A program made the translations under genes and the position numbers. From a virus (Duplodnaviria > Heunggongvirae > Uroviricota > Caudoviricetes), in the IMG/VR virus record IMGVR_UViG_3300014204_006651, positions 16,416 through 80,415 of that record: 64,000 bases of DNA. One strand, given 5' to 3'. Shown here in pieces: positions 262 through 49,661 of this stretch. Below the pieces are notes generated by a model that saw only the letters and a program-made list of their open reading frames with translations, was not told the DNA's origin and made no database searches. Position 1 is the stretch's first letter. Every line of letters begins with the position of its first letter.

Positions 262-936
262 ATGGCAAAAAATATTGATTTAAATAAAATTAAGGGTGAA
301 ATTGAAAGTCGTAAAAGAGAAAGAAATATGACACAATCATCATTTGGTGAGCAAGTTAATGCAGCTCCAAAAGATGTATTTTTAAATGGATTACTTGAAT
401 CTTTACAAACTGGTAGAGAAACTGCTGCATTAAATTTATTAAAAACTGTTGATAATAAAGCATCTATAAAAATTGGTGAAATACCTAAACACACAATAAA
501 TGAAACTTCTGTTCAACGAAGACCAATTCAAATGGAAGAAAAACAACATTCAGTTGAAATGTCACCGGAAAGGGATGAACAATTATTTCATGATATTGAA
601 AAAAAGAGAAAAAGTACTTTAGCTGAATCAATGGAAGGTTATATTAATCCTGCAGGACATAGACCCACACAAGTTCCTTTAAATGAGGGAACGTATCAAC
701 AACCAATGTTGAATGAAGTATATTTAGCTGAAAGTGTAAAACGAATGGTGAATAATCATTTGATTGAAAATTTAGGTCCTGTTCTTGAAGAATCAATTAA
801 AAGTACAATTATTGAAATGTATGCTGTTGAACGAATAAATGAAGTTCTTCGTGAAAATAAGGAATTTATTAAAACAGTCGTCATAGATACAATTAAAGAG
901 ATACAAGCAAGAAGCAAAGCAAAAGCGCAACAATAA
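262..936 (+). CDS. hypothetical protein
   Basis: 224-aa ORF with an ATG start after the motif and a terminator hairpin overlapping its stop. No recognisable motifs. Confidence 0.55.
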   Translation: MAKNIDLNKIKGEIESRKRERNMTQSSFGEQVNAAPKDVFLNGLLESLQTGRETAALNLLKTVDNKASIKIGEIPKHTINETSVQRRPIQMEEKQHSVEMSPERDEQLFHDIEKKRKSTLAESMEGYINPAGHRPTQVPLNEGTYQQPMLNEVYLAESVKRMVNNHLIENLGPVLEESIKSTIIEMYAVERINEVLRENKEFIKTVVIDTIKEIQARSKAKAQQ

Positions 937-950
937 ATTGCGTTTTTTTT
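924..950 (+). terminator. rho-independent terminator
   Basis: CGCAA-CAATAAA-TTGCG hairpin (stems 926-930 and 938-942) followed by a T8 run at 943-950. Confidence 0.5.
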
Positions 951-1005: not shown

Positions 1006-2868
1006 ATGACATATAATGATTTTTTAAAATTTTTAAATGAATTTAATAAAATTAATACTTTTATTGGTAAGATTGATTATGCAAATAGAAATCTAAATAG
1101 GATTGCTTCAGGTACTGGAAGAATTGTATATGATATTGATGGTAATAAAGTATTTAAATTAGCTAAAAACACAAAAGGTATTTCACAAAATGATGCAGAA
1201 TCATCTGCTGCAGTATATAAAAGTTATGACGATATATTAACCGATGTTATTGAATATGCTGATGATGATTCTTGGTTAATAGCTGAAAAAGCAAAAAAAA
1301 TCACATCATTAAGATTTAAAGAATTAATTGGTTATGATATTAATCAGTTTTATGCTTATTTAGCAAATGATGATTTAGAAATAAATGGATATCCTAAACG
1401 ATATAAAATCGATCCTACTATTGAGGCACAAATGCATGATGATGAACAAATACAAAGATTTAGAAATTTTATAATTGATTATGATATTAATGTTGGTGAT
1501 TTTGGACGAATAAGTTCATATGGTGAAATTGTACGTGAAGGTATACCTACTTTAGTATTAACTGATTATGGATTAACTAAAGATAATTATAATACTCATT
1601 ATACTTCAACAAAAAATAAAAGTTATGTGTTACATGAATTATTTTTTGGTGATGGTAATGATGATATTCTTTCTGATATAGGGGGTAGTGAAGAAATTAG
1701 AATGGGAAATGCAACAATACCATTAAATTATGTTAGTGAAGACGGTAGTTCGAATTTTTCAACTGATAATACTTTAGGTCGAGATAATTTTCCAATATAT
1801 AATCAGATTGATACTTCACCATCAATCAATAATGATTCCGAGGCAAATAGTGAAATTGATGAAGATTTAGAATATAATCATGCCAGTGATGCAACAAAAG
1901 ATCAATATAGTATTACAGAACGTATAGTGTCAGCAATGCCGGGAAGTAGTAGTGTTGAAGTTAAAAAGAAATGTAGATTAGCAGGTAATGGTAATACAAG
2001 TACTGCATGTAATCAAGGAGATATAAAAAATTTAAATATTAAATCACTTAAAGAAACTGTTAATATTAATTTACCCAATGGTGAAATTGATGGGTTTCAA
2101 TCATTTGATATTATTAATAATAATCAAGTTATTGGTGAAATTGATATAATTAATCGTGATAATGGTTATATAATTCTTGATAAAATTTTTATTCATAAAA
2201 ATTATAGGGGTAAGGGTTATGCCAATGAAGTAATACAAATTTTATTTAAATATGCCGATAAATTTAATAAAATTATTACCTTAACCCCGGATAATATTTG
2301 GGGAGCAAATATGAATAAATTAAAAAGATGGTATCAATCTTTAGGTTTCACGATGAACAAAGGTAGAAATAAAGATTTTACAACAATGCAACTAATGTAT
2401 AGATTACCAAAAACATTAAATGAGGGATTTAATGGGAATTCTTTTGATAGTTGGTTTAGTGGTTCACAAGTAGTAGATAATGATGATAAACCTTTGGTTG
2501 TTTATCATGGCACAAATAAGAAATTTGATAGATTTAATTTAAAAAATGCAGCACAACCAATAATATGGTTTTCTTCGGATAAAAATAAAATAGAACGAGG
2601 TGAAGCAGGTGCTGCCGGAACAAGCAGAATTGTTCCAGCTTATTTATCAATAAAGAAAATGGCTGGCTGGAATGAATATGAAAAATATGGGTTGGGTCAA
2701 CTTTATGAAATGGGATATGATGGGGCAAAACTTGATGATGATTATTTTGTATTTAGTTCAAAACAAATAAAAATATTGAAAAATAAGAATAGTATTAATG
2801 TTACAAACTTAATGGATGAAATTAATAAAAATATAAATGAGGCAAGAAAATTAATGAATGTTAAATAA
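1006..2868 (+). CDS. multidomain enzyme with a protein-kinase-like N-domain, a central GNAT acetyltransferase and a C-terminal Tpt1/KptA-like ART-fold domain
   Basis: Kinase-like: GTGRIVYDIDGNKVFKLAK (Gly loop plus Lys) and IIDYDINVGDFGRIS (catalytic loop plus DFG). GNAT-like: IHKNYRGKGYANEV. Tpt1-like: VVYHGTNKKF ... IWFSSD, comparable to KptA LYHGT ... VHLSAD. The start is taken at the internal ATG because the track start at 982 overlaps the promoter motif. Confidence 0.5.
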   Translation: MTYNDFLKFLNEFNKINTFIGKIDYANRNLNRIASGTGRIVYDIDGNKVFKLAKNTKGISQNDAESSAAVYKSYDDILTDVIEYADDDSWLIAEKAKKITSLRFKELIGYDINQFYAYLANDDLEINGYPKRYKIDPTIEAQMHDDEQIQRFRNFIIDYDINVGDFGRISSYGEIVREGIPTLVLTDYGLTKDNYNTHYTSTKNKSYVLHELFFGDGNDDILSDIGGSEEIRMGNATIPLNYVSEDGSSNFSTDNTLGRDNFPIYNQIDTSPSINNDSEANSEIDEDLEYNHASDATKDQYSITERIVSAMPGSSSVEVKKKCRLAGNGNTSTACNQGDIKNLNIKSLKETVNINLPNGEIDGFQSFDIINNNQVIGEIDIINRDNGYIILDKIFIHKNYRGKGYANEVIQILFKYADKFNKIITLTPDNIWGANMNKLKRWYQSLGFTMNKGRNKDFTTMQLMYRLPKTLNEGFNGNSFDSWFSGSQVVDNDDKPLVVYHGTNKKFDRFNLKNAAQPIIWFSSDKNKIERGEAGAAGTSRIVPAYLSIKKMAGWNEYEKYGLGQLYEMGYDGAKLDDDYFVFSSKQIKILKNKNSINVTNLMDEINKNINEARKLMNVK

Positions 2869-2917
2869 TTAATGACCCTTTCCGTATCTTTTGTGGGTTT
2901 CCATACTATTTATTGTT

Positions 2918-3748
2918 ATGAGAAATAATTGGAGTGATATTGAAATTAATATACTTAAAATATATTATCCAAATACTAATGATATTAACATTGTTAAATA
3001 TTTTAATGGAAGAACGTTAACATCAATTAAAATTAAAGCAAAAAGATTGAAAATTTATCGTAATGATAAAATTAAAAAATGTAATCGTAGTAATGGTAGC
3101 GTTGGTATTAAAAATGGTATGTATGGAAAATCTTCTAAATTAAAAGGTAAAACATATGATGAATATTATGGTAATGAAAAATCCAAAATAATTAAAGATA
3201 AATTATCTAATAATAATATTGGTAAAATTGGTTCATTTGGTAGTAAAAATGGTATGTATAAAAAAATACCGTATAATAAAGGTATTTCACCAAGTAATGA
3301 AATTAAAAATAAAATAAAAAGTGGTATTAATAATTATTGGAATAATTTAAATAAATTTGAATTAAAAAAAAGAAAAGATAAATTAAGGGAAGATTGGATC
3401 ATAAAAAGAAAGAAATATTCTGAGATTGATACAATACCTGAAATAATAACTGAAAATATTTTATTAAAATTAAAAATTAAATATCAAAAAAAAATAAATA
3501 TTGGATATTATAATTGTGATTTTGTAGTCAATAATATTATTATTGAAGTACAAGGAGATTATTGGCATGGTAATCCAAAATTTTATAATTCATTTGATAA
3601 AATACAAGAAAAAAATATTAATAGAGATAAAAGAAAATTAAAATTCTTACAATCAAAGGGATATTTGACATTATATTTATGGGAAAATGATTTAAAACAT
3701 AATGTTGATTATTGTGAAAACCAACTAATAAAACATTTTTATGAGTAA
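2918..3748 (+). CDS. freestanding homing-endonuclease-like protein with a Vsr/DUF559-type PD-(D/E)XK C-domain and NUMOD-like repeats
   Basis: C-terminal NCDFVVNNIIIEVQGDYWHGN resembles the Vsr core FVDGCFWHG. Two KNGMYGK/KNGMYKK repeats resemble NUMOD3. The track start at 2891 is a TTG; the ATG at 2918 is preferred. Confidence 0.5.
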   Translation: MRNNWSDIEINILKIYYPNTNDINIVKYFNGRTLTSIKIKAKRLKIYRNDKIKKCNRSNGSVGIKNGMYGKSSKLKGKTYDEYYGNEKSKIIKDKLSNNNIGKIGSFGSKNGMYKKIPYNKGISPSNEIKNKIKSGINNYWNNLNKFELKKRKDKLREDWIIKRKKYSEIDTIPEIITENILLKLKIKYQKKINIGYYNCDFVVNNIIIEVQGDYWHGNPKFYNSFDKIQEKNINRDKRKLKFLQSKGYLTLYLWENDLKHNVDYCENQLIKHFYE

Positions 3749-5897
3749 AATAGAAAATTTTAGAAATGTGTTAATAAATAAACCATTTATTAAATCAATA
3801 ATTAATGATTTGAGAGGTGAATGTTATGCTGTAGGGGGGGTTGTTCGTGATTTAATACTAAATAAACCAAATAAAGATATTGATTTAGTTATTAGAAATG
3901 TTCCGATTGATAAACTAATTTTACAATTACAAAAATTTGGTAAGGTTGATGTCGTTGGTAAATCATTTGGTGTTATTAAATTTATTGATTCTGATGGTAT
4001 TGAATATGATTTAGCACTTCCAAGAACAGAAAAAAAAAATAATTTGGGGGGATATAGGGGATTTAATGTTCAAAGTGATCCAAATTTATCTGTTGATGAC
4101 GAACTTTTCAGAAGAGATGCAAAATTAAATGCTATGGCAATTAATTTAAATACTGGTAAATTTATTGATCCTTTGGGTGGATTAGAAGATATTGAAAAAA
4201 AACAAATATCTGCTGCAAATCCGGAAGCATTTAGTGATGATCCATTACGTATGTTAAGAATGGTTGGTTTTGCATCACGTTTTGGTTTTACAATTGAACC
4301 AAAAACAATGCAATTAATACAACAGAATGCTCAAAGAATAAAAGAAATTCCCCCGGAAAGGATTTTAACTGAATTTGAGAAAATAGTTAAAAAAGGAAAT
4401 AAAAGAGTTGGTGCACAATTACTTAAAAATACGGGATTATATAATCAAATTTTTGGTTCTGATTTAAAGCAATCTGTAATAGATAGGAGTCCATTTGAAG
4501 ATATTAAAACAATGGGTGAATTTATTTATTTATTAATACGGTTAAAATCAGACCCTGCAACATTTTATAAAAATAATTTAAAGGGTGATATTGACACATT
4601 TAAAGAAATTAAAGCAATTGATATTGCATATAATAGTAGTGAAAATTCCAATTCAATTAAAGCAAAAGCGGTTGCACACAATATGTATGCGTTATCTCCG
4701 CAATCACTTCAAAGTAAAATATTACCAAATATTATTGAAATTGCAGCACAGGAATTGCTTACTGGTAAATATCCTAAAATACTTGGTGATTTAGCAATAA
4801 ATGGTAATGATTTAACTGAAATAGGTTTTAAAAGTAAAGAAATTGGAAATATGCTTAAATCATTATTATTAAATATATATGCCGATAAAATTAAAAATAA
4901 TAAAGAAGAACTTTTAAATTTTGCTGAACAAAATAAATCAAGAAGTGGTGAAGTATTTGATGGAATAGCTGTTTATAGTGGTGTAATACTTGATGAAGAA
5001 TCAAGACAAAAATTAATTAAGGTTTTTAGTAGAATGATACCTAAAGATTGGGAAATAATTACACACCATATGACAATTAAAACTGGTAGACTTGATCCAG
5101 ATTCTAATGAAAAAAAGGATATTGAAAACAATAAAACAGTTGAATTAAGTGTTCTTGATTATGCAATGGATGATAAAGTAATGGCGGTTGGGGTTAAAGG
5201 TTATCCAAGTCAAAATACGAAACCACACATAACTTTGGGAGTTAATAGAAATGATGATGGTAAACCAGCAATGTCAAATAATTTAACTAATTGGAAACCA
5301 CTTGGTTTTCCATTAAAATTAACTGGAAAAGTTCGAGAAATTGAAGAAGAAATTAAAAATGTAAATGTTATTAACGAAAACGATAACATAAAAATTGAAT
5401 ATGGCTCATTAATGTTAAATTTAAATATTCCTAATTGGATTAGAATAACTTCAATTATTAATAAAAATGATATTTATAATGAAGAAGGTTTTGGAATTGA
5501 AAACGAACCACATTTAACAATTTTATATGGTTTTCATAATAATGTTACTGCGAATGATGTTTTTGATTTATATAAATCAGTAACTAAACTAAAACCAATT
5601 AAAATAATAACAACAGGTATTTCAAGTTTTGAAAATAATGAGTTTGATGTTGTAAAATTAGATGTTGAAGTTACTAATTTTTTAAAATTATTAAATAAAA
5701 ATATGAGGGAATTTCCAAACACTAATGAATTTAATGAATATAATCCACATGTTACAATTAGTTATGTAAAAAAGGGTTGTGGGAAAAAATATAATAAAGT
5801 ATTTAAAAATAAAATAAATTTAATTGGTGATGAATTAGTTTTTTCAACAAAAAAAAATAAACAAAAAAAAATAAAATTGAATAAAGAAAAGGAATAA
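3741..5897 (+). CDS. class II nucleotidyltransferase (CCA-adding enzyme/poly(A) polymerase head domain) fused to a C-terminal 2H phosphoesterase (LigT/CPDase-like)
   Basis: The head-domain motifs are all present: GGVVRD, DIDLV, FRRDAKLNAMA (RRD motif), IDPLGGLEDI and DPLRMLRMVGFASRFGF. The C-terminus has three H-x-T-x motifs (PHITLG, PHLTILYG, PHVTISY), typical of 2H phosphoesterases. The start overlaps the upstream stop (ATGAGTAA). Confidence 0.8.
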   Translation: MSKIENFRNVLINKPFIKSIINDLRGECYAVGGVVRDLILNKPNKDIDLVIRNVPIDKLILQLQKFGKVDVVGKSFGVIKFIDSDGIEYDLALPRTEKKNNLGGYRGFNVQSDPNLSVDDELFRRDAKLNAMAINLNTGKFIDPLGGLEDIEKKQISAANPEAFSDDPLRMLRMVGFASRFGFTIEPKTMQLIQQNAQRIKEIPPERILTEFEKIVKKGNKRVGAQLLKNTGLYNQIFGSDLKQSVIDRSPFEDIKTMGEFIYLLIRLKSDPATFYKNNLKGDIDTFKEIKAIDIAYNSSENSNSIKAKAVAHNMYALSPQSLQSKILPNIIEIAAQELLTGKYPKILGDLAINGNDLTEIGFKSKEIGNMLKSLLLNIYADKIKNNKEELLNFAEQNKSRSGEVFDGIAVYSGVILDEESRQKLIKVFSRMIPKDWEIITHHMTIKTGRLDPDSNEKKDIENNKTVELSVLDYAMDDKVMAVGVKGYPSQNTKPHITLGVNRNDDGKPAMSNNLTNWKPLGFPLKLTGKVREIEEEIKNVNVINENDNIKIEYGSLMLNLNIPNWIRITSIINKNDIYNEEGFGIENEPHLTILYGFHNNVTANDVFDLYKSVTKLKPIKIITTGISSFENNEFDVVKLDVEVTNFLKLLNKNMREFPNTNEFNEYNPHVTISYVKKGCGKKYNKVFKNKINLIGDELVFSTKKNKQKKIKLNKEKE

Positions 5898-5909
5898 AAA
5901 ATTATAATA

Positions 5910-6806
5910 ATGAGATTAGTTGCTTTCGACTTTGATAAAACATTAATTAATTCTCCTTTGGAAGATGAAGGTAAAGAAATATGGCTTGAAAAAACCGGAA
6001 ATTCATATCCATATAAAGGATGGTGGGGAAGACCTGAAAGTTTAGACATTAATGTTTTTAATATTAAACCATTTCCAAGCATATATAAACAATATAAAAA
6101 GGAAATTTCTACACCAGATACTTATGTAATCATTCTTACATCAAGAATAGAAAAATTACGACCACAAATTGAAGCAATTTTAAATAAAAATGATATACAT
6201 GTCAATGAAATTGATATGTTTAATGATAAATTAACAAAAGGTCAAAGAATTCTTGAATATCTTAAAAAATTTCCAGATTTAATTGAGATTAATGTATATG
6301 AAGATCGTCAAAGTGATATAGTTGCTTTAAAAAGTATTAGAAATCAAATTCCAGAAAATATTACATATAATATTTATTATGCAAGTAATGGTAATTTAGT
6401 ATTATTAGAATCAACTTCTAAAATAAATAATATTGTTAAAGAAGAAATTGAAAAATTTATAAATAACGATAATTATATATATCATGGTACACATATCGGT
6501 GCAGGTTTTCATATACAACGTGATGGTAAAATGAAATTATTTAATGAACCATATATTTCGTTTACCAGTGATCCAAATGTTGCAAAATATTATGCTAATA
6601 TGAAAGGCGGTTCTTCTGGAAGAAATATTATTTTAAGAACAAACTTAACTAAGGATTTTCAAGAATCTCCAAAATATGAAAAAAATAATGGACATGAATG
6701 GATAACTACAAAAGAAATACCTGTTGATGAATTGGAAATAAATAGTAAATATGGTTGGATTCCATTAAATAATTGGGATTTTATTGACAATAATATTAAA
6801 AAATAA
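5910..6806 (+). CDS. HAD-family phosphatase fused to a Tpt1/KptA-like (ART-fold) domain
   Basis: HAD motif I is FDFDKTL, motif II is ILTSR and motif IV is EDRQSD. The C-terminal YIYHGTH ... ISFTSDPNVAKYYANMKGG aligns with KptA LYHGT ... [18 protein letters not shown]. Confidence 0.55.
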   Translation: MRLVAFDFDKTLINSPLEDEGKEIWLEKTGNSYPYKGWWGRPESLDINVFNIKPFPSIYKQYKKEISTPDTYVIILTSRIEKLRPQIEAILNKNDIHVNEIDMFNDKLTKGQRILEYLKKFPDLIEINVYEDRQSDIVALKSIRNQIPENITYNIYYASNGNLVLLESTSKINNIVKEEIEKFINNDNYIYHGTHIGAGFHIQRDGKMKLFNEPYISFTSDPNVAKYYANMKGGSSGRNIILRTNLTKDFQESPKYEKNNGHEWITTKEIPVDELEINSKYGWIPLNNWDFIDNNIKK

Positions 6807-6835
6807 AATATTAGTATTTATAGAAAAATATTCCA

Positions 6836-7666
6836 ATGATAGATATGAGATATAAACCACGTTTTTTGCCACAAGTTAGTGCACCATATACAATCATGTT
6901 GCAAAAACTTGATGATGATGGTGTGGATTATGATATCGTTGAAATTGATCCAAACGAATTAGAACCATTACAAGGAATTACTTTTTCGGATGAAGTTGAA
7001 AATGTAAATCTTAATGATATGAATCCAATTTGGATGTCAAACAATAATAAAGTTCTTGATGGTCATCATAGAATGGTTCGTGGATTACTTGATAATAAAA
7101 AATTAAAAGCAATTCGAATTAATTTAAACGAAAAAGATGCTGCCAGAGTTTTAAATAAAATCCATGATATTTATGAGTATGAACAAGCACATGGGATGGA
7201 AGAAACTACTAATGATGAAGTAATTAATGATGAAAATCAGGCAAGTGCGGGTGTAAGTCAAAGCGAATTTCTTGCTTCACTTGAAGAAGATAATATGACA
7301 ATTCAACAAGAAAAATCTGAAGGAAATGAAAAAACAATTATAGCCTATCGAAAAGAACCGATAAAGAAAAATTCAGTTGTTGGTAATTTTTTTACATTAA
7401 ATCCAATTGATGGTTTTACTAAATATCAAATAGATTTTGATAATTTATTAGATACAAATGAATTGGGTGTAACATATAAAGATGGTCAACAACCAGTAGA
7501 TATTTTAGCTAAAATATGGTTTCCACACATAAATTTTGAAAAAATAAGTAGTCAATATAATACCGATTCAAATAATATTAAAAGTAAAGCTATTGCTGAA
7601 AAAGCAATGAAACTTGGTTATGATGGTGTTAAATATGGCGATAAAATAATACAAGGATTAAAATAA
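6836..7666 (+). CDS. ParB/Srx-like nuclease domain protein
   Basis: N-terminal VLDGHHRMVRGL matches the ParBc DGHHR signature. The C-terminal LGYDGVKYGD motif is shared with the C-terminus of ORF 1006 (MGYDGAKLDDD). A promoter motif lies at 6814-6822. Confidence 0.5.
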   Translation: MIDMRYKPRFLPQVSAPYTIMLQKLDDDGVDYDIVEIDPNELEPLQGITFSDEVENVNLNDMNPIWMSNNNKVLDGHHRMVRGLLDNKKLKAIRINLNEKDAARVLNKIHDIYEYEQAHGMEETTNDEVINDENQASAGVSQSEFLASLEEDNMTIQQEKSEGNEKTIIAYRKEPIKKNSVVGNFFTLNPIDGFTKYQIDFDNLLDTNELGVTYKDGQQPVDILAKIWFPHINFEKISSQYNTDSNNIKSKAIAEKAMKLGYDGVKYGDKIIQGLK

Positions 7667-7674
7667 TTAAAGAT

Positions 7675-8007
7675 ATGAGTACATATAGAATTACAAATAT
7701 AACTAATCTTGCCGGAAAACGTGATTTTAAATATAATTCAGTTTTGGATATTAATTATGTTGATGGTATGATGAAAAAAATTAAGAAAGTTAAACCGGGA
7801 GATACAATGTTTTTAACCGTTTCAACGCTACCACTTTCAATTCATAGATTAAGGGTTAAAGGTTTAATTACTGTAATTGAAGTGGGATCGAAAGAATTGG
7901 ATAATGAATTGATTGGAAAAAATTTTTCAATTCCAACAAAAAATGAAGAAGTTCTTGAACAAAAATCCGAAACAAAAAAACATATTAAAAAAAAGGTAAT
8001 TAAATAA
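7675..8007 (+). CDS. hypothetical protein
   Basis: 110-aa ORF followed by a strong terminator. Confidence 0.45.
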   Translation: MSTYRITNITNLAGKRDFKYNSVLDINYVDGMMKKIKKVKPGDTMFLTVSTLPLSIHRLRVKGLITVIEVGSKELDNELIGKNFSIPTKNEEVLEQKSETKKHIKKKVIK

Positions 8008-8169: not shown

Positions 8170-9156
8170 ATGGTAAATGAATTAGATATTATTGATGATT
8201 TTAAAAATGGATTTAACATTTCTGCATTGGAATCAAAATATGGTGGAAGAAGAAAAACATTACGTAAGATATTATTTAAAAATAATTTAATTGATTCGAT
8301 TGAACCAGTTAGAAAATGTTATTTTAATGGTGGCAATAAAGACGATATTAAAAATAAAGTATTAATAAAATATAAAAATGAAAAAAATCTAAAAATTTTA
8401 AGTGATGAATTTAAAATACCCATAATGTCAATATACAATTTTTTAAGAAAAGAGGATGTTTTTAATTCTGAATATGGAAAACAATTACATCATAATAAAG
8501 TAAGAAAATATTCATTAAATGAACAATATTTTGACAATATTGATTGTGAAGAAAAAGCATATTTTTGGGGAATTTTATATGCTGATGGCAATAATTCAAT
8601 AAAAAAAACTGAAATAAAATTAAATCTACAAGAAGATGATCATGAAATATTAATTAAATTAAATAATTTATTACAACCAACAAAACCAATCTTATATAAA
8701 CCAACAAATAGAATCAATTGCAAATCACAATATGCGTTAATTATTAATTCTAAGATTATATCATATAGATTAAATGAATTAGGTATCGTACCAAATAAAA
8801 CATTTAAAGTAGAATATCCTACATGGTTAAATAATGATTTAAATAGACATTTTATTAGAGGATATTTTGATGGTGATGGTTGCGTTACATTTAATAAAAT
8901 TAATAAACAATTATGTATTAGTTTTACTGGAACTGAAAATATGATGTTAGGTATACAAAGAATCTTGATGGATCAATTAGATTTTTATAAAACAAAATTA
9001 AGTAATAGATATCCAGAAAGAAATAACAACATTAGGTCATTAATGTATTTTGGTAATGGAAATTCCAGAAAATTTTATAATTATTTATATAATAATTCTA
9101 AAATATATATGGCAAGAAAGAAAAATAAATTTAATAAACATTTAAAATTAAATTAA
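8170..9156 (+). CDS. freestanding LAGLIDADG homing endonuclease
   Basis: Two LAGLIDADG-type motifs: AYFWGILYADGNN and IRGYFDGDGCVTF. It sits immediately upstream of the intein-containing gene. Confidence 0.7.
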   Translation: MVNELDIIDDFKNGFNISALESKYGGRRKTLRKILFKNNLIDSIEPVRKCYFNGGNKDDIKNKVLIKYKNEKNLKILSDEFKIPIMSIYNFLRKEDVFNSEYGKQLHHNKVRKYSLNEQYFDNIDCEEKAYFWGILYADGNNSIKKTEIKLNLQEDDHEILIKLNNLLQPTKPILYKPTNRINCKSQYALIINSKIISYRLNELGIVPNKTFKVEYPTWLNNDLNRHFIRGYFDGDGCVTFNKINKQLCISFTGTENMMLGIQRILMDQLDFYKTKLSNRYPERNNNIRSLMYFGNGNSRKFYNYLYNNSKIYMARKKNKFNKHLKLN

Positions 9157-9158: not shown

Positions 9159-11663
9159 ATGGATGGAAAAATAAAGATACTTTTTTATACGTTAGATTCT
9201 GCCGGGGTAGCGTATTTTCGTACACTTACTCCAGCAATGGAAATAGAAAGAAATCATAGTGATGAATTTTATGTTGAAATTAACCCACAAATTAATTTTA
9301 ATGATCCTAAATTTGTTGACTACTTAAAATCATTTCATATTATACATTATCATCGTCAATTTTTGAGTGATAGTAAACAAATGTTAAATTTAGCTAATGA
9401 GTTAAGAAAATCTGGAACAATTTTGATCTGTGATATTGATGATTATTGGCAATTACATAAAAAACATCCATTTTATAGTATGAGCCTCGAAAAAAAACTT
9501 TATATACCTATTTTGGAAAACTTAAAAATTGCTGATTATGTTACAACCACTACAGATTTATTTGCAAATGAAATTCGTAAAGTAACTGGTAGAGATAATG
9601 TTGGAGTATTTTATAATTCAGTTGATCCAACATGGATGAAACAATTTCAGAATAACTGGAAACCAGACCCGGATGGTAGAGTTAGGATAAGTTATATGGC
9701 AGGGTCGAGCCATATGGTTGATATTGAACAACTTGAAGGAGTTATGAATGTATTATCAAATGATACTTCATTAAGAGATAAATTTAAAGTAATTATAGCA
9801 GGTTGGGATACTGAAGGTAATACTACTGATATTACATTTAATCAGGAGTTTGGAACTGAACTCCAAAAAAGAGGTTTATGGGTATATGAAGTAGTTAAAG
9901 CAATTAATAATTCAAGAGGTGATGTGGATAAAATACCTAAATTACCCGCAGATTTAAAAGAAAAATATAGGGGAAAGATTTTTGATTCACAACAGAGAGA
10001 TATTAAATCAACTGAAAGTGTTTATTATTTATATGAAAATATTTTAACGGATAAACATAGAATGATAAATAATCCTGATTATTACCAATGGTTACATAAT
10101 TTTGAAAGAAATGTTGATTATCCCAATGAAGGAAATTTTGCACGTAGATGGACACAAAAAGCAAATACTTATGCACAAGTTTTAAATGAAACTGATATTG
10201 TACTTGCACCATTGGCTGATAATTCATTTAATAGAATGAAATGTGTTACTGAAGATACTTTAATATCAACCAATAAGGGGATATATAAAATTGGTGATAT
10301 TGTCAATAATTCTTGTAAGGACATTAAAATAATGCATGAAAATGTTATTAATTTATTTAAATATCCAAATGAAAGGGTAATTAAATTAACAACACATATT
10401 GGTGTTGAAATTGAGGGTACTGAGACACATAGAATAATGGTAGGGGGTGAGTGGAAAATGTTAAAAGATTTTGAAATTGGTGATCTTATTAATATTTCTC
10501 CTTTTGAAATTGAAACAAAAGAATACCAAAGAATTCATTATCCATTATTATTAAGTAAGAGGATAACTGAAACAACATTAAATAATTCAACTAAACTAAT
10601 GATGCCGTCAATTGAAATTAATGAGAATTACGGTAGATTTTTTGGATACATGGTTGGTGATGGTCATTTTTCAAAGGGTTATTTAAATATAAGTTGTGAT
10701 AAAAGACATATAAATGTGGTTCAAGATATTAAAGAACTTGTTGAAAGCATGGGATTAATGCCCATTATATATGAGAAAAAACCGGATAGTCGTTGTATAA
10801 ATTCATATATTAAAGAGGGTTTTGGTATTGAAGTTAGAATACCATCGAAGCATTTAGCAAATATATGTTATCAAGAGAATTTGAGAGATGAAAAGGGAAA
10901 GATTTTTGAAGTACCTCATTTTATATTAAAATCTCCAAAGTCTGTAATACGAGAATTTTTACGTGGATTATTCGAAGCAGACGGAACTGTTAATGCGGAA
11001 TCATCAAACATGAGTTTATGTACAAAAAGCTTTATTTTAGCCAAACAAGTACAATATTTATTACTTGGGTTTGGGATTGTATCAATCATAGACAAAGCAT
11101 TGAATAAGAAATATAAAAGATATTACTATTATGTTAAATTGAACCGTGATGCTTCGGATATTTTCTACAGTGAAATTGGGTTTATATCCGAAATTAAGTG
11201 TGAAAAATTAAAGAGAATTACCGAAAAATTACATAGTAATAGATTTATGAAACAAAGTTTTAATACTACCATTCTAAATGTTGAATATTCGGTAAAGGAT
11301 GTTTATGATGTTGAGGTTGAAAATATTCATCAATATAATGGTAATGGTATAATTAATCATAATTCAAATCTTAAGCAAGTTGAATGTTGGACAAGAAAAC
11401 TTCCTATTGTGTGTTCAGATATTCCACCTTATAATGTACATGGTAGGCATATGGAAAATTGTGTGTTAATCCCTGCTGTAAAAAATGCACATAAATATTG
11501 GCAAAAATATTTAAAAAGACTAATTTTAAATCCTGATTTAAGAAAACAAATTGGTGAACAACTTTATGAGGATTTTAAAGAAGACTATAATCTTGCAAAT
11601 GTTACTAAAAAACGTATAGAGTTTTATAAAGCAGCGGTTGCAAAAACATTGGCAGTAATTTAA
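9159..11663 (+). CDS. GT-B (GT4-like) glycosyltransferase precursor interrupted by an intein
   Basis: The N-extein ends ...LAPLADNSFNRMK and the C-extein begins SNLKQVECWTRKLPIVCSDIPPY. This is the GT4 E-x7-E region, a typical conserved-site location for intein insertion. Confidence 0.7.
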   Translation: MDGKIKILFYTLDSAGVAYFRTLTPAMEIERNHSDEFYVEINPQINFNDPKFVDYLKSFHIIHYHRQFLSDSKQMLNLANELRKSGTILICDIDDYWQLHKKHPFYSMSLEKKLYIPILENLKIADYVTTTTDLFANEIRKVTGRDNVGVFYNSVDPTWMKQFQNNWKPDPDGRVRISYMAGSSHMVDIEQLEGVMNVLSNDTSLRDKFKVIIAGWDTEGNTTDITFNQEFGTELQKRGLWVYEVVKAINNSRGDVDKIPKLPADLKEKYRGKIFDSQQRDIKSTESVYYLYENILTDKHRMINNPDYYQWLHNFERNVDYPNEGNFARRWTQKANTYAQVLNETDIVLAPLADNSFNRMKCVTEDTLISTNKGIYKIGDIVNNSCKDIKIMHENVINLFKYPNERVIKLTTHIGVEIEGTETHRIMVGGEWKMLKDFEIGDLINISPFEIETKEYQRIHYPLLLSKRITETTLNNSTKLMMPSIEINENYGRFFGYMVGDGHFSKGYLNISCDKRHINVVQDIKELVESMGLMPIIYEKKPDSRCINSYIKEGFGIEVRIPSKHLANICYQENLRDEKGKIFEVPHFILKSPKSVIREFLRGLFEADGTVNAESSNMSLCTKSFILAKQVQYLLLGFGIVSIIDKALNKKYKRYYYYVKLNRDASDIFYSEIGFISEIKCEKLKRITEKLHSNRFMKQSFNTTILNVEYSVKDVYDVEVENIHQYNGNGIINHNSNLKQVECWTRKLPIVCSDIPPYNVHGRHMENCVLIPAVKNAHKYWQKYLKRLILNPDLRKQIGEQLYEDFKEDYNLANVTKKRIEFYKAAVAKTLAVI
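10242..11363 (+). mobile_element. intein (374 aa) with a LAGLIDADG homing-endonuclease domain
   Basis: It begins with Cys (CVTEDTLIS) and ends with HN followed by a +1 Ser. The internal motifs FFGYMVGDGHF and EFLRGLFEADGTVNA are LAGLIDADG-like. The splice junctions restore a contiguous GT motif. Confidence 0.75.
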
Positions 11664-29184: not shown

Positions 29185-30408
29185 ATGTCAAGTATTCAAT
29201 ATAAAATTTGTGGTAATAAACCACCATTTCTTGCACAAGTTTGGAACTGTACAGAAACAACAATTATTCAACAAAAAGGTGTTGATTTTTCTGGTACTTG
29301 TGTAGTATTTAATGGATTATCTCCAAGTACATGGCATTGTGTAAAAACAATTGATAATATTGGTAAAGTAATTGGTTTTAGTTGCTGTACTTGTGCAGCA
29401 ATCATTCCTAAAGTTTTAGTTTCAAAAACATTATCATTATATGGTACAGTTTCCAATATTTCAACATCAAGTACTATTGTTGGAACAAGAACACTTAATA
29501 TAAATCCTGTGTTGGTTGCAAGTGATGATTATTCAGTTAAATTTAATATTATAACTTGTGATAAAGGAAACACTTCAAATCTTGTTAGGTTATATTGTAA
29601 TGGTACTGCTTTAAGTCCATATTATTTAAACACGAATAATACTTGTTCTCGTACTCTTTCTTTAAATTATGGTGATACTTTAACGTATGATATGGCTACA
29701 ACATTAACCAATACTTCAACAACTGTTGGTTGTGGTTGTGCAATACTTCAAATTGTTAGTGGTGCAAGTAGTGCATTTCAACCAGTGGTTTCTACAACCG
29801 CTTATTGTAAAAAAACATCTCTAACCTTGGCTTCAACAACTACTACTACTACTACTACTACAACTGCTGCCCCATCATTAATATATGTTGGATTTACAAT
29901 ACCACATATTAATATTAATAGTAGTATTGAAAAATCATATTATACAACATTAAAAACATCAAGACCATTAATTGAAGGACAATCATTTAAATTAAAAATA
30001 AATTCATTTGCACTTGTTGATGCACATGATGCATTATTTCATAAATCAAGCGCATGTGTAGCATATTATTTAAATACTGTAAAACAAGTATGTGGTGAAG
30101 TAGTTAAGATAGTTAATAATTCCGGATATGCCCATTCACCTTTAAATGCAATTTCATATATTACGATAAATAATTGTAATATTAATAATTTTATTTTTTG
30201 TGTTAATGCTTGTGGCAATGTTGGAAATACTCAAACTTGTAGTAGTGGAATAATTCAAATTCAAGGAATTTCAGAAATGGTCGGTGGTTGTTTCACATAT
30301 AATTCAAATTCTCAAGATTATCGTACATTTGTAAAAGCAGAATATAAGAGTGATCCTTTTAATCTTGATGATCCATATCCATCAGGTGCAATACCAACAC
30401 CAGAATAA
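29185..30408 (+). CDS. Cys-rich fibre-like protein with a poly-Thr linker
   Basis: 407 aa with ASTTTTTTTTTTAAPS and many Cys. Confidence 0.5.
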   Translation: MSSIQYKICGNKPPFLAQVWNCTETTIIQQKGVDFSGTCVVFNGLSPSTWHCVKTIDNIGKVIGFSCCTCAAIIPKVLVSKTLSLYGTVSNISTSSTIVGTRTLNINPVLVASDDYSVKFNIITCDKGNTSNLVRLYCNGTALSPYYLNTNNTCSRTLSLNYGDTLTYDMATTLTNTSTTVGCGCAILQIVSGASSAFQPVVSTTAYCKKTSLTLASTTTTTTTTTTAAPSLIYVGFTIPHININSSIEKSYYTTLKTSRPLIEGQSFKLKINSFALVDAHDALFHKSSACVAYYLNTVKQVCGEVVKIVNNSGYAHSPLNAISYITINNCNINNFIFCVNACGNVGNTQTCSSGIIQIQGISEMVGGCFTYNSNSQDYRTFVKAEYKSDPFNLDDPYPSGAIPTPE

Positions 30409-32458: not shown

Positions 32459-33070
32459 ATGGAAAAATATATTTGGTCATTAGATATAAGTACAACTAAT
32501 ATTGGTAGTTCATTATGGAATAATAAAGGAAAACTTATTGAATTAAAACATCTTGAATTAAAAACAGATAAAAAAATTACCATTCTAAATCGTGATATTT
32601 ATAAAGCAGAAATTTTTAGGAAATATGTGTTAGAATATAAAGAACGCATATTGAATGAATTGAATGGTGAAATAATTAATATTATTGTTGAAGAACCATT
32701 GGGTGGAAGTAATAATCCATCGACAGCATCATTATTGTTTGGTTTTAATGGTATATGTAGATATATTTTATTTTCAATTTTTGAGATTTATCCATTAAAA
32801 ATTAGTGTGTATGATTCAAGAAAAACATTTTGTCCTGAATTAATAATTATTACATATAGAAAAGGATTAAAAAAAGAAACATTAACATTTCCACCTAAAT
32901 ATAAAGATAAAAAGAAGTTGTATATATGGGAAAAAGTATGTAAATTAGAACCACAAATTGAATGGTTTTATAAAAAAGATACAAATGAACCCAAAGATAT
33001 GTGTTTTGATATGAGTGATTCATATTGTGTTGGTTATGCGGGATTAAAACAATTAGAAATTATTAAATGA
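32459..33070 (+). CDS. RuvC-like Holliday junction resolvase
   Basis: WSLDISTTNIGSSLW supplies the N-terminal catalytic Asp in a G-rich loop, and IIVEEPLGG the catalytic Glu. C-terminal DMSDSYCVGYAG. This resembles phage and poxvirus A22-type resolvases. Confidence 0.55.
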   Translation: MEKYIWSLDISTTNIGSSLWNNKGKLIELKHLELKTDKKITILNRDIYKAEIFRKYVLEYKERILNELNGEIINIIVEEPLGGSNNPSTASLLFGFNGICRYILFSIFEIYPLKISVYDSRKTFCPELIIITYRKGLKKETLTFPPKYKDKKKLYIWEKVCKLEPQIEWFYKKDTNEPKDMCFDMSDSYCVGYAGLKQLEIIK

Positions 33071-33375
33071 AATATGTATATTTAATTCAATCATTAGAAA
33101 ATAGTTATTATAAAATTGGTTTATCTAAACATCCAAACAAAAGAATTAAAGAATTACAAACCGGGAATTCTTCCGAATTAAAATTAATTGAAACATATGA
33201 ATCTGAATTTGCACACATAATTGAAAAAACATTACAAAGAAGGTATTCACATCTACGTAAGGAAGGTGAGTGGTTTGAAATGTCCATAAGTAATGAAATT
33301 TCATTTAAAAATGAATGTAAAAAAATAGAAGAAAATTTAAAATTTTTAAAAAAAAACAATTATGTATTTATATAA
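33067..33375 (+). CDS. T5orf172 (GIY-YIG-related) domain protein
   Basis: YVYLIQS ... YKIGLSKHPNKRIKELQTGN ... EWFEM matches the T5orf172/MUG113 consensus (YVY ... KIG.T ... R..ELQTG ... EWF). Confidence 0.65.
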   Translation: MKYVYLIQSLENSYYKIGLSKHPNKRIKELQTGNSSELKLIETYESEFAHIIEKTLQRRYSHLRKEGEWFEMSISNEISFKNECKKIEENLKFLKKNNYVFI

Positions 33376-35511: not shown

Positions 35512-36105
35512 ATGGTTGAAGATATAAATTTAATTAAAGAAGTTTTAAATAAAAATTATAAAGCTGAAAAATTATTTTTTGATAAATATAGAAAAATAAT
35601 TAAAAATTTTTTAAAAAATAAATTTTCAAAAATAGTTATTGATGACATAGATGATTATGTTTCAGATATTTTAATTAAAGTTTATGAAAATCTTAATAAA
35701 TATAATATTAAATTTAATTTTAAAACATGGGTATTAACCATAGCCAAACATCATATGATTGATGTTTGGAGAAATAATGCTATTACTATACCAATTAATA
35801 ATATTATTTTAGATGAAAATGATGATGAAAATAATTATTGTACAACAACAGGATGTTTAACCTTTAATGAAAATAGTAGTTTTAGTACATCATGTATTGT
35901 AGATTTTGAAAACAATAGTTCAATTTCATATATATCTTCACAATTATCCCCTGAAGATTATACTTTATTAACAATGAAGTATATTCAAGGATATGATTAT
36001 AATGAAATTGCTCAAGAATTTAATCTTACAAGTAGTACAATTAGCAATAAAGTAAATTATATTAAAACTAAACTAAAAAAAATTAACTTGGAGAGAGATT
36101 CATAA
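35512..36105 (+). CDS. sigma-70 family (ECF-like) RNA polymerase sigma factor
   Basis: Region 2 is WVLTIAKHHMIDVWRN. Region 4 HTH is YIQGYDYNEIAQEFNLTSSTISNKVNYIKTKLKK. Confidence 0.6.
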   Translation: MVEDINLIKEVLNKNYKAEKLFFDKYRKIIKNFLKNKFSKIVIDDIDDYVSDILIKVYENLNKYNIKFNFKTWVLTIAKHHMIDVWRNNAITIPINNIILDENDDENNYCTTTGCLTFNENSSFSTSCIVDFENNSSISYISSQLSPEDYTLLTMKYIQGYDYNEIAQEFNLTSSTISNKVNYIKTKLKKINLERDS

Positions 36106-36138: not shown

Positions 36139-37497
36139 ATGAAACAAGGTATTTTAGAATATATTAATCTAAAAAAAGAAATTGCTAAAAGTAAAGAAGG
36201 TAGAGATTATATAAAATATATTGTAGTTTCTAATATTAAAAATGAAACGTATAACGTAAAAGATAAACTAAAAGCTCTTGGTTTTAATTGGGATAGAAGA
36301 AATTTTAATTGGTATATATTTGGAAATAAATTAACCCATGATATTCTCGATGGGTTAAAACAAATCAATAATGAGTTGAAAACTGATGGTGGACAAACCG
36401 AAAATATAGATGAATTTATTTATTCATTAGAATCATTTAGAGAACAAATTAATACTTCATCAGCTACTCCAGAAGTTAAAGTTAATTTAACATCACTTCT
36501 TGATCAATATATTGAAGATATAGCAAATGCTACTGATTCAAGAGCAGCAGATGCTGAAATACAAAAATATATTGAATTTTCACATAAATTTCATAATTAT
36601 AGTTTTTTAAATTCAATATTAATTTATATTCAAGATAATAATGCAACAAAAGTTGCTGGTCGAAAAAAATGGGAAAGTTTAGGTAGACAAGTTATTAATT
36701 TAGATAAAAGAATTGTAATTAATTGTTTTAATGAATATTATGTTGATCCTAAAACTGGAAAAAGAATGTCGTATTCATTAGATCAAAAAAAATCAGATAG
36801 AGATTATGTTGCAAAAGTAAAGGGAGGTACTGAACCATTTGATAAGAAAAAAATGGATGATATTGAATCAAGAACTAAAATCATAAAAACTGGTTTTAGT
36901 GATTGTAGTGTTTATGATGTTGCCAATACAACAGGAGAAGCATTACCAGAAGAACCTACATGGAAAGGCACGTCTGATGATAGTGCAGATTCAATTGCAT
37001 TATTTAATATTGCTAAAAAAAGTTTAGAAAATTCGGGTATAAAAGTAACTCAAGACCCATCAAAACAAGGTGAAGGAGGTTTGAGTGGAATTGGTTATAT
37101 AAATATTAGTGCTGGTGAAAAAGGTAGTGGTGCTGCTTCGATAATTTTTCATGAATGGGGACATGAATTACTTCATCATCCTAATAGTAAGTTTCATAGT
37201 AGGTCATTAGAATATTTTGAAAAAAAAGGTGAATTAACATATACACAAATTAAACAAATAAAAGAAGTACAGGCAGAAACAATCTCTGCGGTATTATGTA
37301 AACATTATGCAATACCTACGAATCAACATCCTACATATATGGCTTTATGGCAAGGACAAGGTGGACTTAAAAGTAAAGAATTGATTAAAGAAAATATTGA
37401 AACTATTAGAGAAGTAAGTAATTTTATAATTAAACAAATTGAACTTAATAAAATAGAATTTGATAAGGCTAAAGAACTGGTACAACAACAAAAATAA
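36139..37497 (+). CDS. ArdC-like antirestriction protein (ssDNA-binding N-domain plus HExxH zincin) with an extra N-terminal extension
   Basis: FHNYSFLNSILIYIQDNNATKVAGRKKWESLGRQV matches the ArdC-N/DUF1738 consensus (YS.N ... AT.V.G...W..LGR.V). The C-terminal IIFHEWGHELLHH is an HExxH metalloprotease motif. A promoter motif lies at 36114. Confidence 0.6.
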   Translation: MKQGILEYINLKKEIAKSKEGRDYIKYIVVSNIKNETYNVKDKLKALGFNWDRRNFNWYIFGNKLTHDILDGLKQINNELKTDGGQTENIDEFIYSLESFREQINTSSATPEVKVNLTSLLDQYIEDIANATDSRAADAEIQKYIEFSHKFHNYSFLNSILIYIQDNNATKVAGRKKWESLGRQVINLDKRIVINCFNEYYVDPKTGKRMSYSLDQKKSDRDYVAKVKGGTEPFDKKKMDDIESRTKIIKTGFSDCSVYDVANTTGEALPEEPTWKGTSDDSADSIALFNIAKKSLENSGIKVTQDPSKQGEGGLSGIGYINISAGEKGSGAASIIFHEWGHELLHHPNSKFHSRSLEYFEKKGELTYTQIKQIKEVQAETISAVLCKHYAIPTNQHPTYMALWQGQGGLKSKELIKENIETIREVSNFIIKQIELNKIEFDKAKELVQQQK

Positions 37498-37930: not shown

Positions 37931-38225
37931 ATTTTAATTAATCGCATATATCATTATATGTATGATAATTCTAATGTTTATTTAATGCGTAAAAGAAAAA
38001 TTTTCCTTTCAATTTTGGAAAATAAAGATTATTTTTACGATATTAATAAATATAGAGTTCAAAAAAAACATAATATTGAATATAAAAACACATATTATAA
38101 TCAATCATAATTATCTAAAACATTAAGTAATGAGATTGGAATAAAAGAAACAACAATAAGAAGAATGTTGCAAAGAGGATATTCAATATCAAAAATAATT
38201 GAAAAACAAAAAATTATTTAAATTA

Positions 38226-45953: not shown

Positions 45954-46160
45954 ATGGATAATAGTGATATTAAGAAAATAGTCAAAGATGAAATTACGAA
46001 TTTTGTTAGAAATTCTTTGGATATTGAATTAAAAAAAATTCTTAGTAATCTAAATAGTAAATCAAGACATGAATTAGCAGATGCAATGAAAAGAGCAATG
46101 GAAAGTGTTGTTAAAACACTGTGGATCAAGAGAGATTTTTGGAAGACAGATATAAAATAA
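45954..46160 (+). CDS. small hypothetical protein
   Basis: 68 aa. The promoter motif at 45929 supports the + strand ORF over the overlapping - strand ORF. Confidence 0.4.
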   Translation: MDNSDIKKIVKDEITNFVRNSLDIELKKILSNLNSKSRHELADAMKRAMESVVKTLWIKRDFWKTDIK

Positions 46161-49630: not shown

Positions 49631-49661
49631 AAAAGTATCAATTATTTGATACTTTTTTTTT
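49631..49661 (+). terminator. rho-independent terminator
   Basis: AAAAGTATCAA-TTAT-TTGATACTTTTTTTTT. Confidence 0.5.

Follow-up and report, generated by a model that had tools for sequence, protein, structure and literature searches.

A conserved phage locus joining a CCA-adding enzyme, 2H phosphoesterases and polyvalent-protein domains, with a possible role in ligase-independent tRNA 3'-end repair

The DNA considered here (the window) is a stretch of 64,000 nucleotides from a virus of the Caudoviricetes (IMG/VR record IMGVR_UViG_3300014204_006651, positions 16,416 to 80,415), and this work deals with the locus found at positions 1006-7666 of its plus strand. Five co-directional open reading frames (ORFs), named here genes A to E, are tightly packed in this locus, with spacings of -8 to +49 nucleotides (Table 1). 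An earlier note on the same DNA had described four plus-strand genes between these positions; the coordinates and the strand are correct, but gene B had been overlooked. The locus combines a CCA-adding enzyme and two 2H phosphoesterase domains (gene C), a HAD phosphatase and an ART fold (gene D), a four-part protein (gene A) and a ParB/sulfiredoxin-fold protein (gene E), and it may serve the repair of tRNA 3' ends in a phage under attack by host defences.

Table 1. Genes, domains and adjoining features of the locus, in window coordinates
Feature	Positions	Strand	Residues	Remarks
Terminator-like hairpin and T-run	921..947	+		10-pair stem, T tail; between upstream 224-aa gene and gene A
Gene A	1006-2868	+	620 aa	four parts
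Short protein-kinase-like domain (A)	1006..1650	+	1-215
Conserved junction module (A)	1651..2070	+	216-355	140 residues
GNAT acetyltransferase domain (A)	2071..2439	+	356-478	acetyl-CoA motif YRGKGYA
ART-PolyVal domain (A)	2440..2868	+	479-620 and stop codon	VVYHGT ... IWFSSD ... GYDGAKL
Gene B, free-standing, homing-endonuclease-like	2918-3748	+		Vsr/DUF559 PD-(D/E)xK nuclease C-terminus
Gene C	3741-5897	+	718 aa
Class II CCA-adding tRNA nucleotidyltransferase (C)	3741..4940	+	1-400	head, neck, body, tail
First 2H phosphoesterase domain (C)	4971..5345	+	~411-535	Trl1 cyclic-phosphodiesterase type
Second 2H phosphoesterase domain (C)	5427..5855	+	~563-705	LigT/ThpR/Acb1 type
Gene D	5910-6806	+	298 aa	starts 12 nt downstream of C
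HAD phosphatase (D)	5910..6425	+	1-172	Swiss-army-knife RNA-repair family
ART-fold domain (D)	6462..6806	+	185-298	YIYHGT; ISFTSD; invariant E263
Gene E	6836-7666	+	276 aa
ParB/sulfiredoxin-fold domain (E)	6836..7210	+	1-125	DGHHR motif
Conserved C-terminal domain (E)	7328..7666	+	165-276	YR...GNFF...EFDNLL...WFP...GYDGVKYG
Small conserved ORF	7675..8007	+	110 aa	no family match; after gene E in all syntenic relatives

The N-terminal part of the gene C product reads as a full-length class II CCA-adding enzyme, for which CCA addition is predicted. Residues 26-399 align with positions 21-394 of the 396 in the NCBIfam model of the Bacillus-type CCA tRNA nucleotidyltransferase (E=3e-44), a better match than that to the PcnB poly(A) polymerase model (E=5e-26); the Pfam families PolyA_pol (E=1.5e-20), PolyA_pol_RNAbd (E=1.4e-16) and tRNA_NucTran2_2 (E=4.8e-5) and the PHROG family phrog_2244 (E=2e-56) are also matched. 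The translation contains the expected catalytic set, that is, GGVVRD at residues 32-37, DxD at 46-48, RRD at 124-126 and DDPLR at 166-170. The class II CCA-adding-type nucleotidyltransferase that had been proposed is thus borne out by the PolyA_pol match, the full-length model and all of the motifs. It had moreover been described as fused to one 2H phosphoesterase; the fusion and the match to LigT/2_5_RNA_ligase2 were recovered, but the number has to be corrected, as two different 2H domains follow the CCA-adding enzyme.

The first 2H domain is of the Trl1 cyclic-phosphodiesterase (CPD) type. Pfam tRNA_lig_CPD (PF08302, cut-off 23 bits) is matched with 25.6 bits by the whole protein and with 28.8 bits by the domain alone, the match being confined to positions 138-218, toward the C-terminus of the 250-position profile, and the 11 members of the family all match tRNA_lig_CPD and no other family. 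Both HxT motifs (H443-M-T445 and H496-I-T498) are invariant or nearly so in this family, which has been found only fused to CCA enzymes or to proteins with the kinase-like domain and junction module described below. Myb repeats, the sole PDB profile matches of this domain, were dismissed as chance.

In the second 2H domain, of the LigT/ThpR/Acb1 type, the HxT motifs (H591-L-T593 and H670-V-T672) are likewise invariant or nearly so. The domain is above the cut-off of Pfam 2_5_RNA_ligase2 (32.1 bits vs 27), matches the NCBIfam RNA 2',3'-cyclic phosphodiesterase (E=3e-8) and stays below the cut-off of Acb1 (PF23474; 23.6 and 26.2 bits vs 27), which its homologue on the related contig L007 passes with 28.1 bits. 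All 15 family members match 2_5_RNA_ligase2, LigT_PEase and Acb1, the last at E<0.01 (best E=2e-9). When the family profile was compared with the PDB, the archaeal LigT-type protein PH0099 was the best match (E=1.4e-5) and T4 Acb1 the second (E=0.0057). Most members are free-standing proteins of ~177 amino acids in huge phages, and some are fused to RNase_T-type exonucleases or to other nucleotidyltransferases.

The CCA-adding part of gene C is matched by 482 phage records. Among the best 36 of these 482 none covers more than 54% of gene C, and therefore the 2H extension looks specific to this phage group. The order CCA-2H-2H was not seen in any other retrieved protein, which is weak evidence of rarity, since the query, the last 319 residues of gene C, failed to retrieve even its own parent protein, which is on record.

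Gene D begins with a HAD phosphatase assigned to the Swiss-army-knife (SAK) RNA-repair family. HAD_SAK_1 (PF10307) is matched by the 33 gene D homologues without exception (best E=1.1e-7), and many of the homologues in databases bear a precomputed PF10307 label. The catalytic set is intact (D7xD9, T77/S78, K110, D132), with D7, D9, T77, K110 and D132 invariant in the homologues. The predicted structure has a pLDDT (predicted local distance difference test score) above 90, and Foldseek retrieves generic HADs with it, among them Pnkp1 of the Pnkp1/Rnl/Hen1 complex. The earlier note had placed this domain in the family of the T4 Pnkp 3'-phosphatase. Signals of that kind are weak (a PHROG polynucleotide kinase at E=9e-4; HAD_PNKP, weakly, in 2 of the 33 homologues), no P-loop polynucleotide kinase family is matched in gene D, where the partner domain is an ART fold, and the placement could not be upheld against that in the SAK family.

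Elsewhere in the window, a second Swiss-army-knife-type HAD (HAD_SAK_2, precomputed) is found on the opposite strand, in the region of 60517-61011 (-) and 62671-63114 (-). Its neighbours are a thioredoxin and a small protein with an HD_4/RelA-SpoT-like hydrolase domain (NCBIfam spoT_relA at E=1e-7, far below the cut-off), which might be an alarmone hydrolase.

The C-terminal 115 residues of gene D model confidently as an ART fold (pLDDT 87; predicted template modelling score, pTM, 0.81). Tpt1 is the top match among solved structures, with toxin ARTs nearly as close, at 8.7-8.8, and in BFVD, among predicted viral structures, multidomain "ParB-like" proteins from mycobacteriophages and from uncultured phages match best (E ~5e-6). 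Two of the 33 gene D homologues match ART-PolyVal weakly, and hhalign relates the gene D domain to it with a probability of 57% (E=1e-4, 97 columns). The C-terminus of gene A matches Pfam ART-PolyVal (PF18760) at E=2.3e-11, with 45 bits vs a cut-off of 31.2, and aligns with the repeated ART-PolyVal domains of relatives. BLASTP comparison of the three HGT/GYDG domains of the locus gives E ~0.05, which is not evidence of relatedness.

In Tpt1, an N-terminal RNA-binding lobe carries most of the Arg-His-Arg-Arg catalytic tetrad and the NAD+ lobe comes after it. The feature of Tpt1 present at the locus is the ART-fold NAD+-binding lobe with its HGT motif; what precedes the ART fold is a HAD in gene D and a GNAT in gene A, and nothing Tpt1-like. 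The Pfam family PF01885 (Tpt1) had zero matches among the five proteins and the 33 gene D homologues at E up to 0.1. Comparison of the gene D ART profile with E. coli KptA by hhalign gave E=0.029 and a probability of 1.7%, over KptA residues 100-175 only, and set the invariant Glu263 of gene D opposite a Val of KptA. With PF01885 unmatched, the N-lobe absent and Glu263 facing Val, membership of the HGT domains in the Tpt1/KptA family was rejected. The fusions postulated for both genes accordingly survive in part: gene D does join a HAD to an ART fold, and gene A does contain a GNAT, an ART fold and, weakly, a kinase-like domain, but Tpt1 membership falls in both, PF18760 being matched in gene A instead. 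The ARTs of genes A and D are here regarded as ART folds of the polyvalent-protein type, which may have Tpt1-like chemistry.

As regards the remainder of gene A, its N-terminal ~215 residues weakly resemble a protein kinase. A Gly-rich loop (GTGRIV), a beta-3 Lys (FKLAK), Glu65, Asp165 and a DYG that replaces DFG can be recognized, and the Gly-rich loop, beta-3 Lys, helix-C Glu, catalytic Asp and DYG Asp are invariant across a family of 72 proteins. The family profile has marginal matches in the PDB to the effector kinase SteC (E=0.0011) and to PKC-iota (E=0.13), the latter spanning DYG (=DFG). The domain matches phrog_4301 (E=5e-9) and one of its homologues is labelled serine/threonine kinase by the Joint Genome Institute (JGI); the Pfam scan of the gene A protein gave no kinase match. 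The GNAT domain is better defined by Pfam (Acetyltransf_7, E=1.6e-8; Acetyltransf_1, E=1.3e-5) and by a PDB spermidine acetyltransferase (E=5e-4). In single-sequence PDB searches with proteins A and E, nothing useful was obtained other than this GNAT.

Between the kinase-like and GNAT domains lies a junction module that ends in ...SSSVEVKKKCRLAGNGNTSTACNQGDIKNL NIKSLKE (nucleotides ~1942-2055), recurs in 130 segments of related proteins and has no family in the Pfam scan. Downstream of it the relatives diverge, with GNAT, CCA enzyme, 2H, ART or other domains. Its motif, ...SSTVEVKKKCRLxGxGNTSxACNQGDIxNL..., is present in the Cys-pair form in 49 proteins, 45 of which have [LIVMF]xE at most 12 residues after it, and it appears more uniform than the flanking catalytic domains. 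Two roles are conceivable for it: a site of proteolysis or packaging, by analogy with the T4 prohead protease, which cleaves after L/I-x-E, or a joint for recombination, comparable to the demarcation motifs that polymorphic toxins have. In the former case the locus proteins might be packaged, cut at the Cys-pair/[LIV]xE junction and arrive with the DNA.

The product of gene E had been taken for a ParB-like nuclease. The profile and the motif suggest a ParB/Srx-type domain: D75, G76 and H77 of DGHHR are invariant and R79 is present in at least 90% of a family of 116 representatives, and the family profile matches the ParB/Srx-fold free serine kinase SerK in the PDB (E=0.0027), aligned across DGHHR. 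Pfam ParBc, on the other hand, is matched neither by gene E, which has no Pfam family at all, nor by 78 family members, and SerK, the only solved relative by sequence, is a kinase. The domain might be a phosphotransferase instead of a nuclease. In 61 family members the C-terminal domain of gene E invariably comes after the ParB domain. A divergent ART-PolyVal is a possible identity for it: hhalign comparison with that family is reliable over the GYDG segment only (probability 35-40%), and the PDB profile search gave no credible match. The small ORF after gene E has positional counterparts of 109, 135 and 121 amino acids in the relatives L007, L008 and L009, respectively.

In these three contigs, whose proteins are only 40-60% identical to those of the window, polB is followed by NUDIX, two or three small genes and then at least one large multidomain ORF; the ParB gene, the small ORF and the gp25 baseplate gene come next, in this order. 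A HAD-ART gene precedes the ParB gene in L007 and L008, and is missing from L009. In addition, the domains of the locus occur fused to each other in many relatives: HAD-ART-ParB (P0021), HAD-ParB-C-domain (P0339, P0386), 2H-ParB (P0416, P0420, P0421), ART-PolyVal-ParB (P0376) and ART-PolyVal-CCA (P0274) proteins were found, as well as kinase-junction-CCA, kinase-junction-2H, CCA-2H and 2H-GNAT fusions, and in L007 a single protein of 2370 amino acids has kinase, GNAT, CCA and 2H domains. On account of the conserved order and of these repeated fusions, the genes of the locus are linked.

The NUDIX hydrolase gene lies a few genes upstream, at 4462-5262 in L001 (~1.8-1.0 kb before the window), 1140-1925 in L008 and 7469-8287 in L009. 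It is conserved in all relatives and could process ADP-ribose derivatives produced by the ART domains.

Gene B probably does not belong to the functional module. It matches Pfam DUF559 (E=2.4e-4), NCBIfam vsr (E=4.5e-7, below the cut-off) and a PHROG endonuclease (E=1.5e-5), and short repeated GMYGK/NGMYKK motifs are found upstream of the nuclease C-terminus. As the counterparts of A and C form one ORF in L007, gene B looks like a mobile insertion between them, and its position, where relatives have a continuous fused ORF, suggests that its arrival broke up a giant ancestral gene. A free-standing LAGLIDADG endonuclease gene (8170-9156) adjoins a gene of 834 amino acids (9159-11663) that holds an intein with its own LAGLIDADG domain (Intein_splicing, E=1e-12); with gene B, this makes three mobile endonuclease elements within 9 kb.

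The window has a G+C content of 25%. Its proteins are found again on metagenomic contigs with lengths of 189 kb and up to 327 kb, which also carry a family-B DNA polymerase, the NUDIX gene and a gp25-type baseplate gene; the nearest deposited genomes, in nucleotide and protein searches of a phage collection, are unannotated huge phages of ~600-640 kb with only 26-41% protein identity. The source is thus a jumbo myovirus-like phage that lacks characterised close relatives and has a genome of at least 327 kb, about a quarter of which was inspected. A window ORF at 29185-30408 (407 amino acids) exceeds by one codon its counterpart of 406 amino acids called on the 189-kb ENA contig (L003, 14661-15881); the window and that contig may therefore be slightly different assemblies of one phage. 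As to transcription, the hairpin at 921..947 may mark the start of the transcription unit. The T4 late-promoter motif TATAAATA has 45 matches in the window vs 32 expected, with zero upstream of gene A, and a scan for sigma-70 promoters remained at chance level.

All window ORFs of at least 100 amino acids were covered by direct Pfam scans (including 46121-49246 and 41598-42749) or by Pfam hits computed beforehand. They include no RNA ligase, in agreement with the earlier note for the window, and none was found in the flanks (6 kb before, 10 kb after) or in L007-L009. Similarly, no tRNA genes were found in the window (ARAGORN), the flanks or the three related loci, the search extending over ~80 kb of the genome, and the window has no matches to Rfam families. 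Some 5-7 kb past the window end, on L004 (2761-4658), there is an ATP-dependent DNA-ligase-family gene (PF01068 and OB domain, 381 amino acids) among genes for an R2K-type ATP-grasp protein, a nucleoside deoxyribosyltransferase and an adenylosuccinate synthetase; it reads as a ligase of replication or nucleotide metabolism.

Among the other window genes, an ArdC-N-like protein (36139-37497; E=3e-4, just below the cut-off), a calcineurin-like phosphoesterase-AAA_23 protein of SbcCD-like type (38199-41555, 1118 amino acids) and a DUF3008 protein (46121-49246, 1041 amino acids) were recognized. ArdC-N is listed among the domains of polyvalent proteins (Iyer et al. 2017, PMC5512222). A sigma-70-family factor (35512-36105), a T5orf172/MUG113 gene (33067-33375), a dCMP deaminase (43352-43795) and two Amidase_2 proteins (43803-44414 and 49646-50467) are also encoded.

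Phages and conjugative elements encode polyvalent proteins, multidomain effectors for which an early action against host defences is predicted and whose signature set includes ARTs with the H...GYDG pattern, truncated kinases, GNAT, ParB/Srx and 2H domains without ligases (PMC5512222). The explanation of the locus that is preferred here, with a probability of about 0.5, is that of a conserved counter-defence locus of this kind, with an RNA core, formed by gene C and the HAD half of gene D, that would carry out ligase-independent tRNA 3'-end repair. Starting from the observed domain identities, intact catalytic motifs, fusions and gene order, we infer the substrates, the order of the steps and the defence addressed as follows. 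A 2H domain would open the 2',3'-cyclic phosphate left on a clipped tRNA tail by metal-independent host RNases; the SAK-type HAD would then strip the remaining 2' or 3' phosphate, possibly aided by the NAD+-using ART-fold domain fused to it; and the CCA-adding enzyme, fused to the 2H domains, would rebuild the tail. The tRNA 3' end is indicated by the fusion of two cyclic-phosphodiesterase-type domains to a CCA enzyme, beside a phosphomonoesterase. The short kinase, GNAT, ART-PolyVal and ParB/Srx domains would be host-modifying or NTP-dependent (nucleoside triphosphate-dependent) effectors drawn from the same shuffled pool.

The theme of RNA end healing and CCA repair, already perceived in the earlier note, fits the adjacency of a Trl1-CPD-type 2H, a LigT-type 2H, a CCA enzyme and a SAK-type HAD. 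The absent ligase need not be regarded as a gap, as it had been, because nothing has to be rejoined: 3' healing and re-addition of CCA already make up a complete repair for tail-clipped tRNAs. The alternative that had been held in reserve, ADP-ribosylation or acetylation of host targets in the manner of T4 Alt/Mod, is well supported by the kinase, GNAT, ART and ParB repertoire (PMC5512222).

Several points weigh against the repair of tRNA tails. The HAD of gene D itself scores 23.7 bits with HAD_SAK_1, just below the cut-off of 25.6, and its fold is not distinguishable from that of generic HAD phosphatases. The second 2H domain is as close to Acb1, which counteracts CBASS (antiphage signalling based on cyclic oligonucleotides), as it is to LigT, so signalling nucleotides could be its substrate instead of RNA ends. 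Fusion is not proof of a shared pathway, because polyvalent proteins string unrelated activities together. Furthermore, the RuvC site of Cas12a3, a nuclease that attacks tRNA tails, should leave ends needing no healing, so that the 2H and HAD domains would be needed only against other nucleases. Finally, the analysis covered roughly a quarter of a genome that is at least 327 kb long, and a ligase and tRNA genes may be located elsewhere.

Other explanations would account for part of these data, and more than one could hold at once, since activities are combined in polyvalent loci. The 2H domains, or at least the second, could act like T4 Acb1 or viral 2'-5' phosphodiesterases and degrade the cyclic or 2'-5'-linked oligonucleotide messengers of CBASS, type III CRISPR and related systems, with the HAD and NUDIX enzymes clearing the products, which would make this an anti-signalling locus and not one of RNA repair. 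The occurrence of Acb1 (PF23474) matches in 15 of 15 second-2H members, one of them (L007) above the cut-off (28.1 vs 27), speaks for such a destruction of signals, as do the second place of T4 Acb1 in the PDB search (E=0.0057), the mostly free-standing state of the family, with its fusions to exonucleases and other nucleotidyltransferases, and the observation that polyvalent 2H domains never stand beside RNA ligases, a role as RNase or in oligonucleotide degradation having been proposed for them (PMC5512222). However, the window copy is below the Acb1 cut-off and scores higher with 2_5_RNA_ligase2 and the NCBIfam RNA 2',3'-cyclic phosphodiesterase, its best PDB match is an archaeal LigT-type protein, and the Trl1-CPD-type first 2H, the CCA fusion and the adjacent RNA-repair-type HAD would be left unexplained; this role is considered unlikely. 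A lower probability is given to a CCA enzyme that merely matures phage tRNAs lacking an encoded CCA, while the kinase, GNAT and ART domains separately reprogramme the host as T4 Alt/Mod and the T7 kinase do. CCA-adding enzymes are common in large phages (482 matching records), the polyvalent-protein literature sees ART, kinase and GNAT domains as enzymes that modify host proteins, and baseplate genes adjoin the locus, a position described for the packaged ARTs of T4 Alt type. Yet the fusion to two 2H domains and the recurrent HAD and 2H fusions would have no explanation, the 2H extension seems group-specific (at most 54% of gene C covered by the best 36 of the 482 records) and no tRNA genes were found in ~80 kb or in the three related loci.

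The locus could also represent the healing half of an anticodon-loop repair of the Trl1/Tpt1 or T4 Pnkp/Rnl1 style, with the ligase encoded elsewhere and the ARTs acting as Tpt1-like 2'-phosphotransferases. The Trl1 CPD type of the first 2H, the presence of a phage "putative RNA 2'-phosphotransferase" among the BFVD matches, an upstream NUDIX that could remove ADP-ribose products in the way proposed for KptA systems (PMC9503650), and the ~25% of the genome inspected are compatible with it. What makes it improbable is that PF01885 is unmatched, that a HAD or a GNAT precedes the ART folds and the KptA alignment is C-terminal only, with Glu263 opposite Val, and that, among viral structures, the ART domains of polyvalent proteins with ParB come closest; besides, neither a P-loop polynucleotide kinase family nor, in the window, flanks and three syntenic loci, an RNA ligase was found, and anticodon-loop repair has no use for a CCA-adding enzyme. 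Chance adjacency of unrelated genes is by far the least probable: phage genomes are packed, gene-dense and mosaic, and the homing-endonuclease gene and intein show that mobile DNA was inserted nearby, but the same order is kept in three contigs at 40-60% protein identity and the domains are repeatedly fused in single polypeptides.

If tRNA tails are indeed repaired, several defences come into consideration. Cas12a3 cleaves tRNA CCA tails, phage-encoded tRNAs cannot evade this clipping and the viral counter-measure has been called unknown (PMC12851939); HEPN-MNT toxins also clip CCA tails (cited in PMC12916289), and retron Eco2 nicks acceptor stems (PMC12916289). A CCA enzyme fused to end-cleaning phosphoesterases is an obvious and directly testable candidate counter to tail-clipping defences. 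That a ligase-free tail repair by two 2H domains, a HAD joined to an NAD+-using Tpt1-like ART and a CCA enzyme is precisely the missing viral answer to Cas12a3 or HEPN-MNT is a tentative idea and rather doubtful. No description of a ligase-free phage tRNA-tail repair system was found in the literature searched. Moreover, the locus extends the polyvalent-protein idea to RNA-repair enzymes, and its natural domain swaps (CCA, two kinds of 2H, HAD, ART, ParB/Srx, kinase and GNAT) can be mined for enzyme partnerships. If its function were signal degradation or plain tRNA maturation, it would be an ordinary addition to the toolkits of jumbo phages.

With regard to known repair systems, the locus shares with Trl1 and Tpt1 of tRNA splicing the CPD type of the first 2H of gene C, and differs from them in having no ligase domain, P-loop kinase, Tpt1 N-lobe or PF01885 match; since the partner is a CCA-adding enzyme, the 3' tail is indicated, and not an internal break. 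It resembles T4 Pnkp/Rnl1, acting on PrrC-cut tRNA, as a phage answer to host tRNA damage with a 3' healing phosphatase of the HAD superfamily, but P-loop kinase, Rnl1 and Rnl2 are absent from it and its HAD is of the SAK family. T4 Acb1 is approached by the second-2H family (Pfam model matched in 15 of 15; T4 Acb1 among the PDB matches), whereas the window copy is below the cut-off, fused to a CCA enzyme and another 2H, and better on LigT/ThpR-type models. The multifunctional CCA enzyme of E. coli likewise combines a class II head with a phosphoesterase, and its NCBIfam model matches gene C at 28-238 (E=1.6e-38); in gene C two 2H domains take the place of the HD domain, with the HAD in a separate gene, and the body and tail better match the Bacillus type. 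The HD domain of the E. coli enzyme has 2',3'-cyclic phosphodiesterase and phosphatase activities, which would be a functional precedent.

In the RNA-repair section of Iyer et al. (2021, PMC7824862), 2H domains, SAK-type HADs, KptA-type ARTs and CCA-adding enzymes are described as RNA-repair parts of jumbo phages, separate from each other and usually accompanying RNA ligases, although the SAK-type HAD tends to occur on its own; by comparison with that account, the parts are here fused together and to protein-modifying domains, with no ligase nearby. To polyvalent proteins (PMC5512222) the locus is similar in its repertoire, its extreme shuffling, its position beside virion structural genes and its 2H domains without an RNA ligase. 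It departs from them in being split over several ORFs, in showing no MuF, portal or metallopeptidase domains and in adding a CCA enzyme, a Trl1-CPD-type 2H and a SAK HAD, a term search of PMC5512222 having found neither "CCA" nor a HAD domain. The domain families, and phage RNA repair as such, were therefore already known, and it is the architectures that look new, as variants: the CCA enzyme with a Trl1-type and a LigT/Acb1-type 2H, the SAK HAD-ART protein, the ParB/Srx-GYDG-domain protein and the junction motif.

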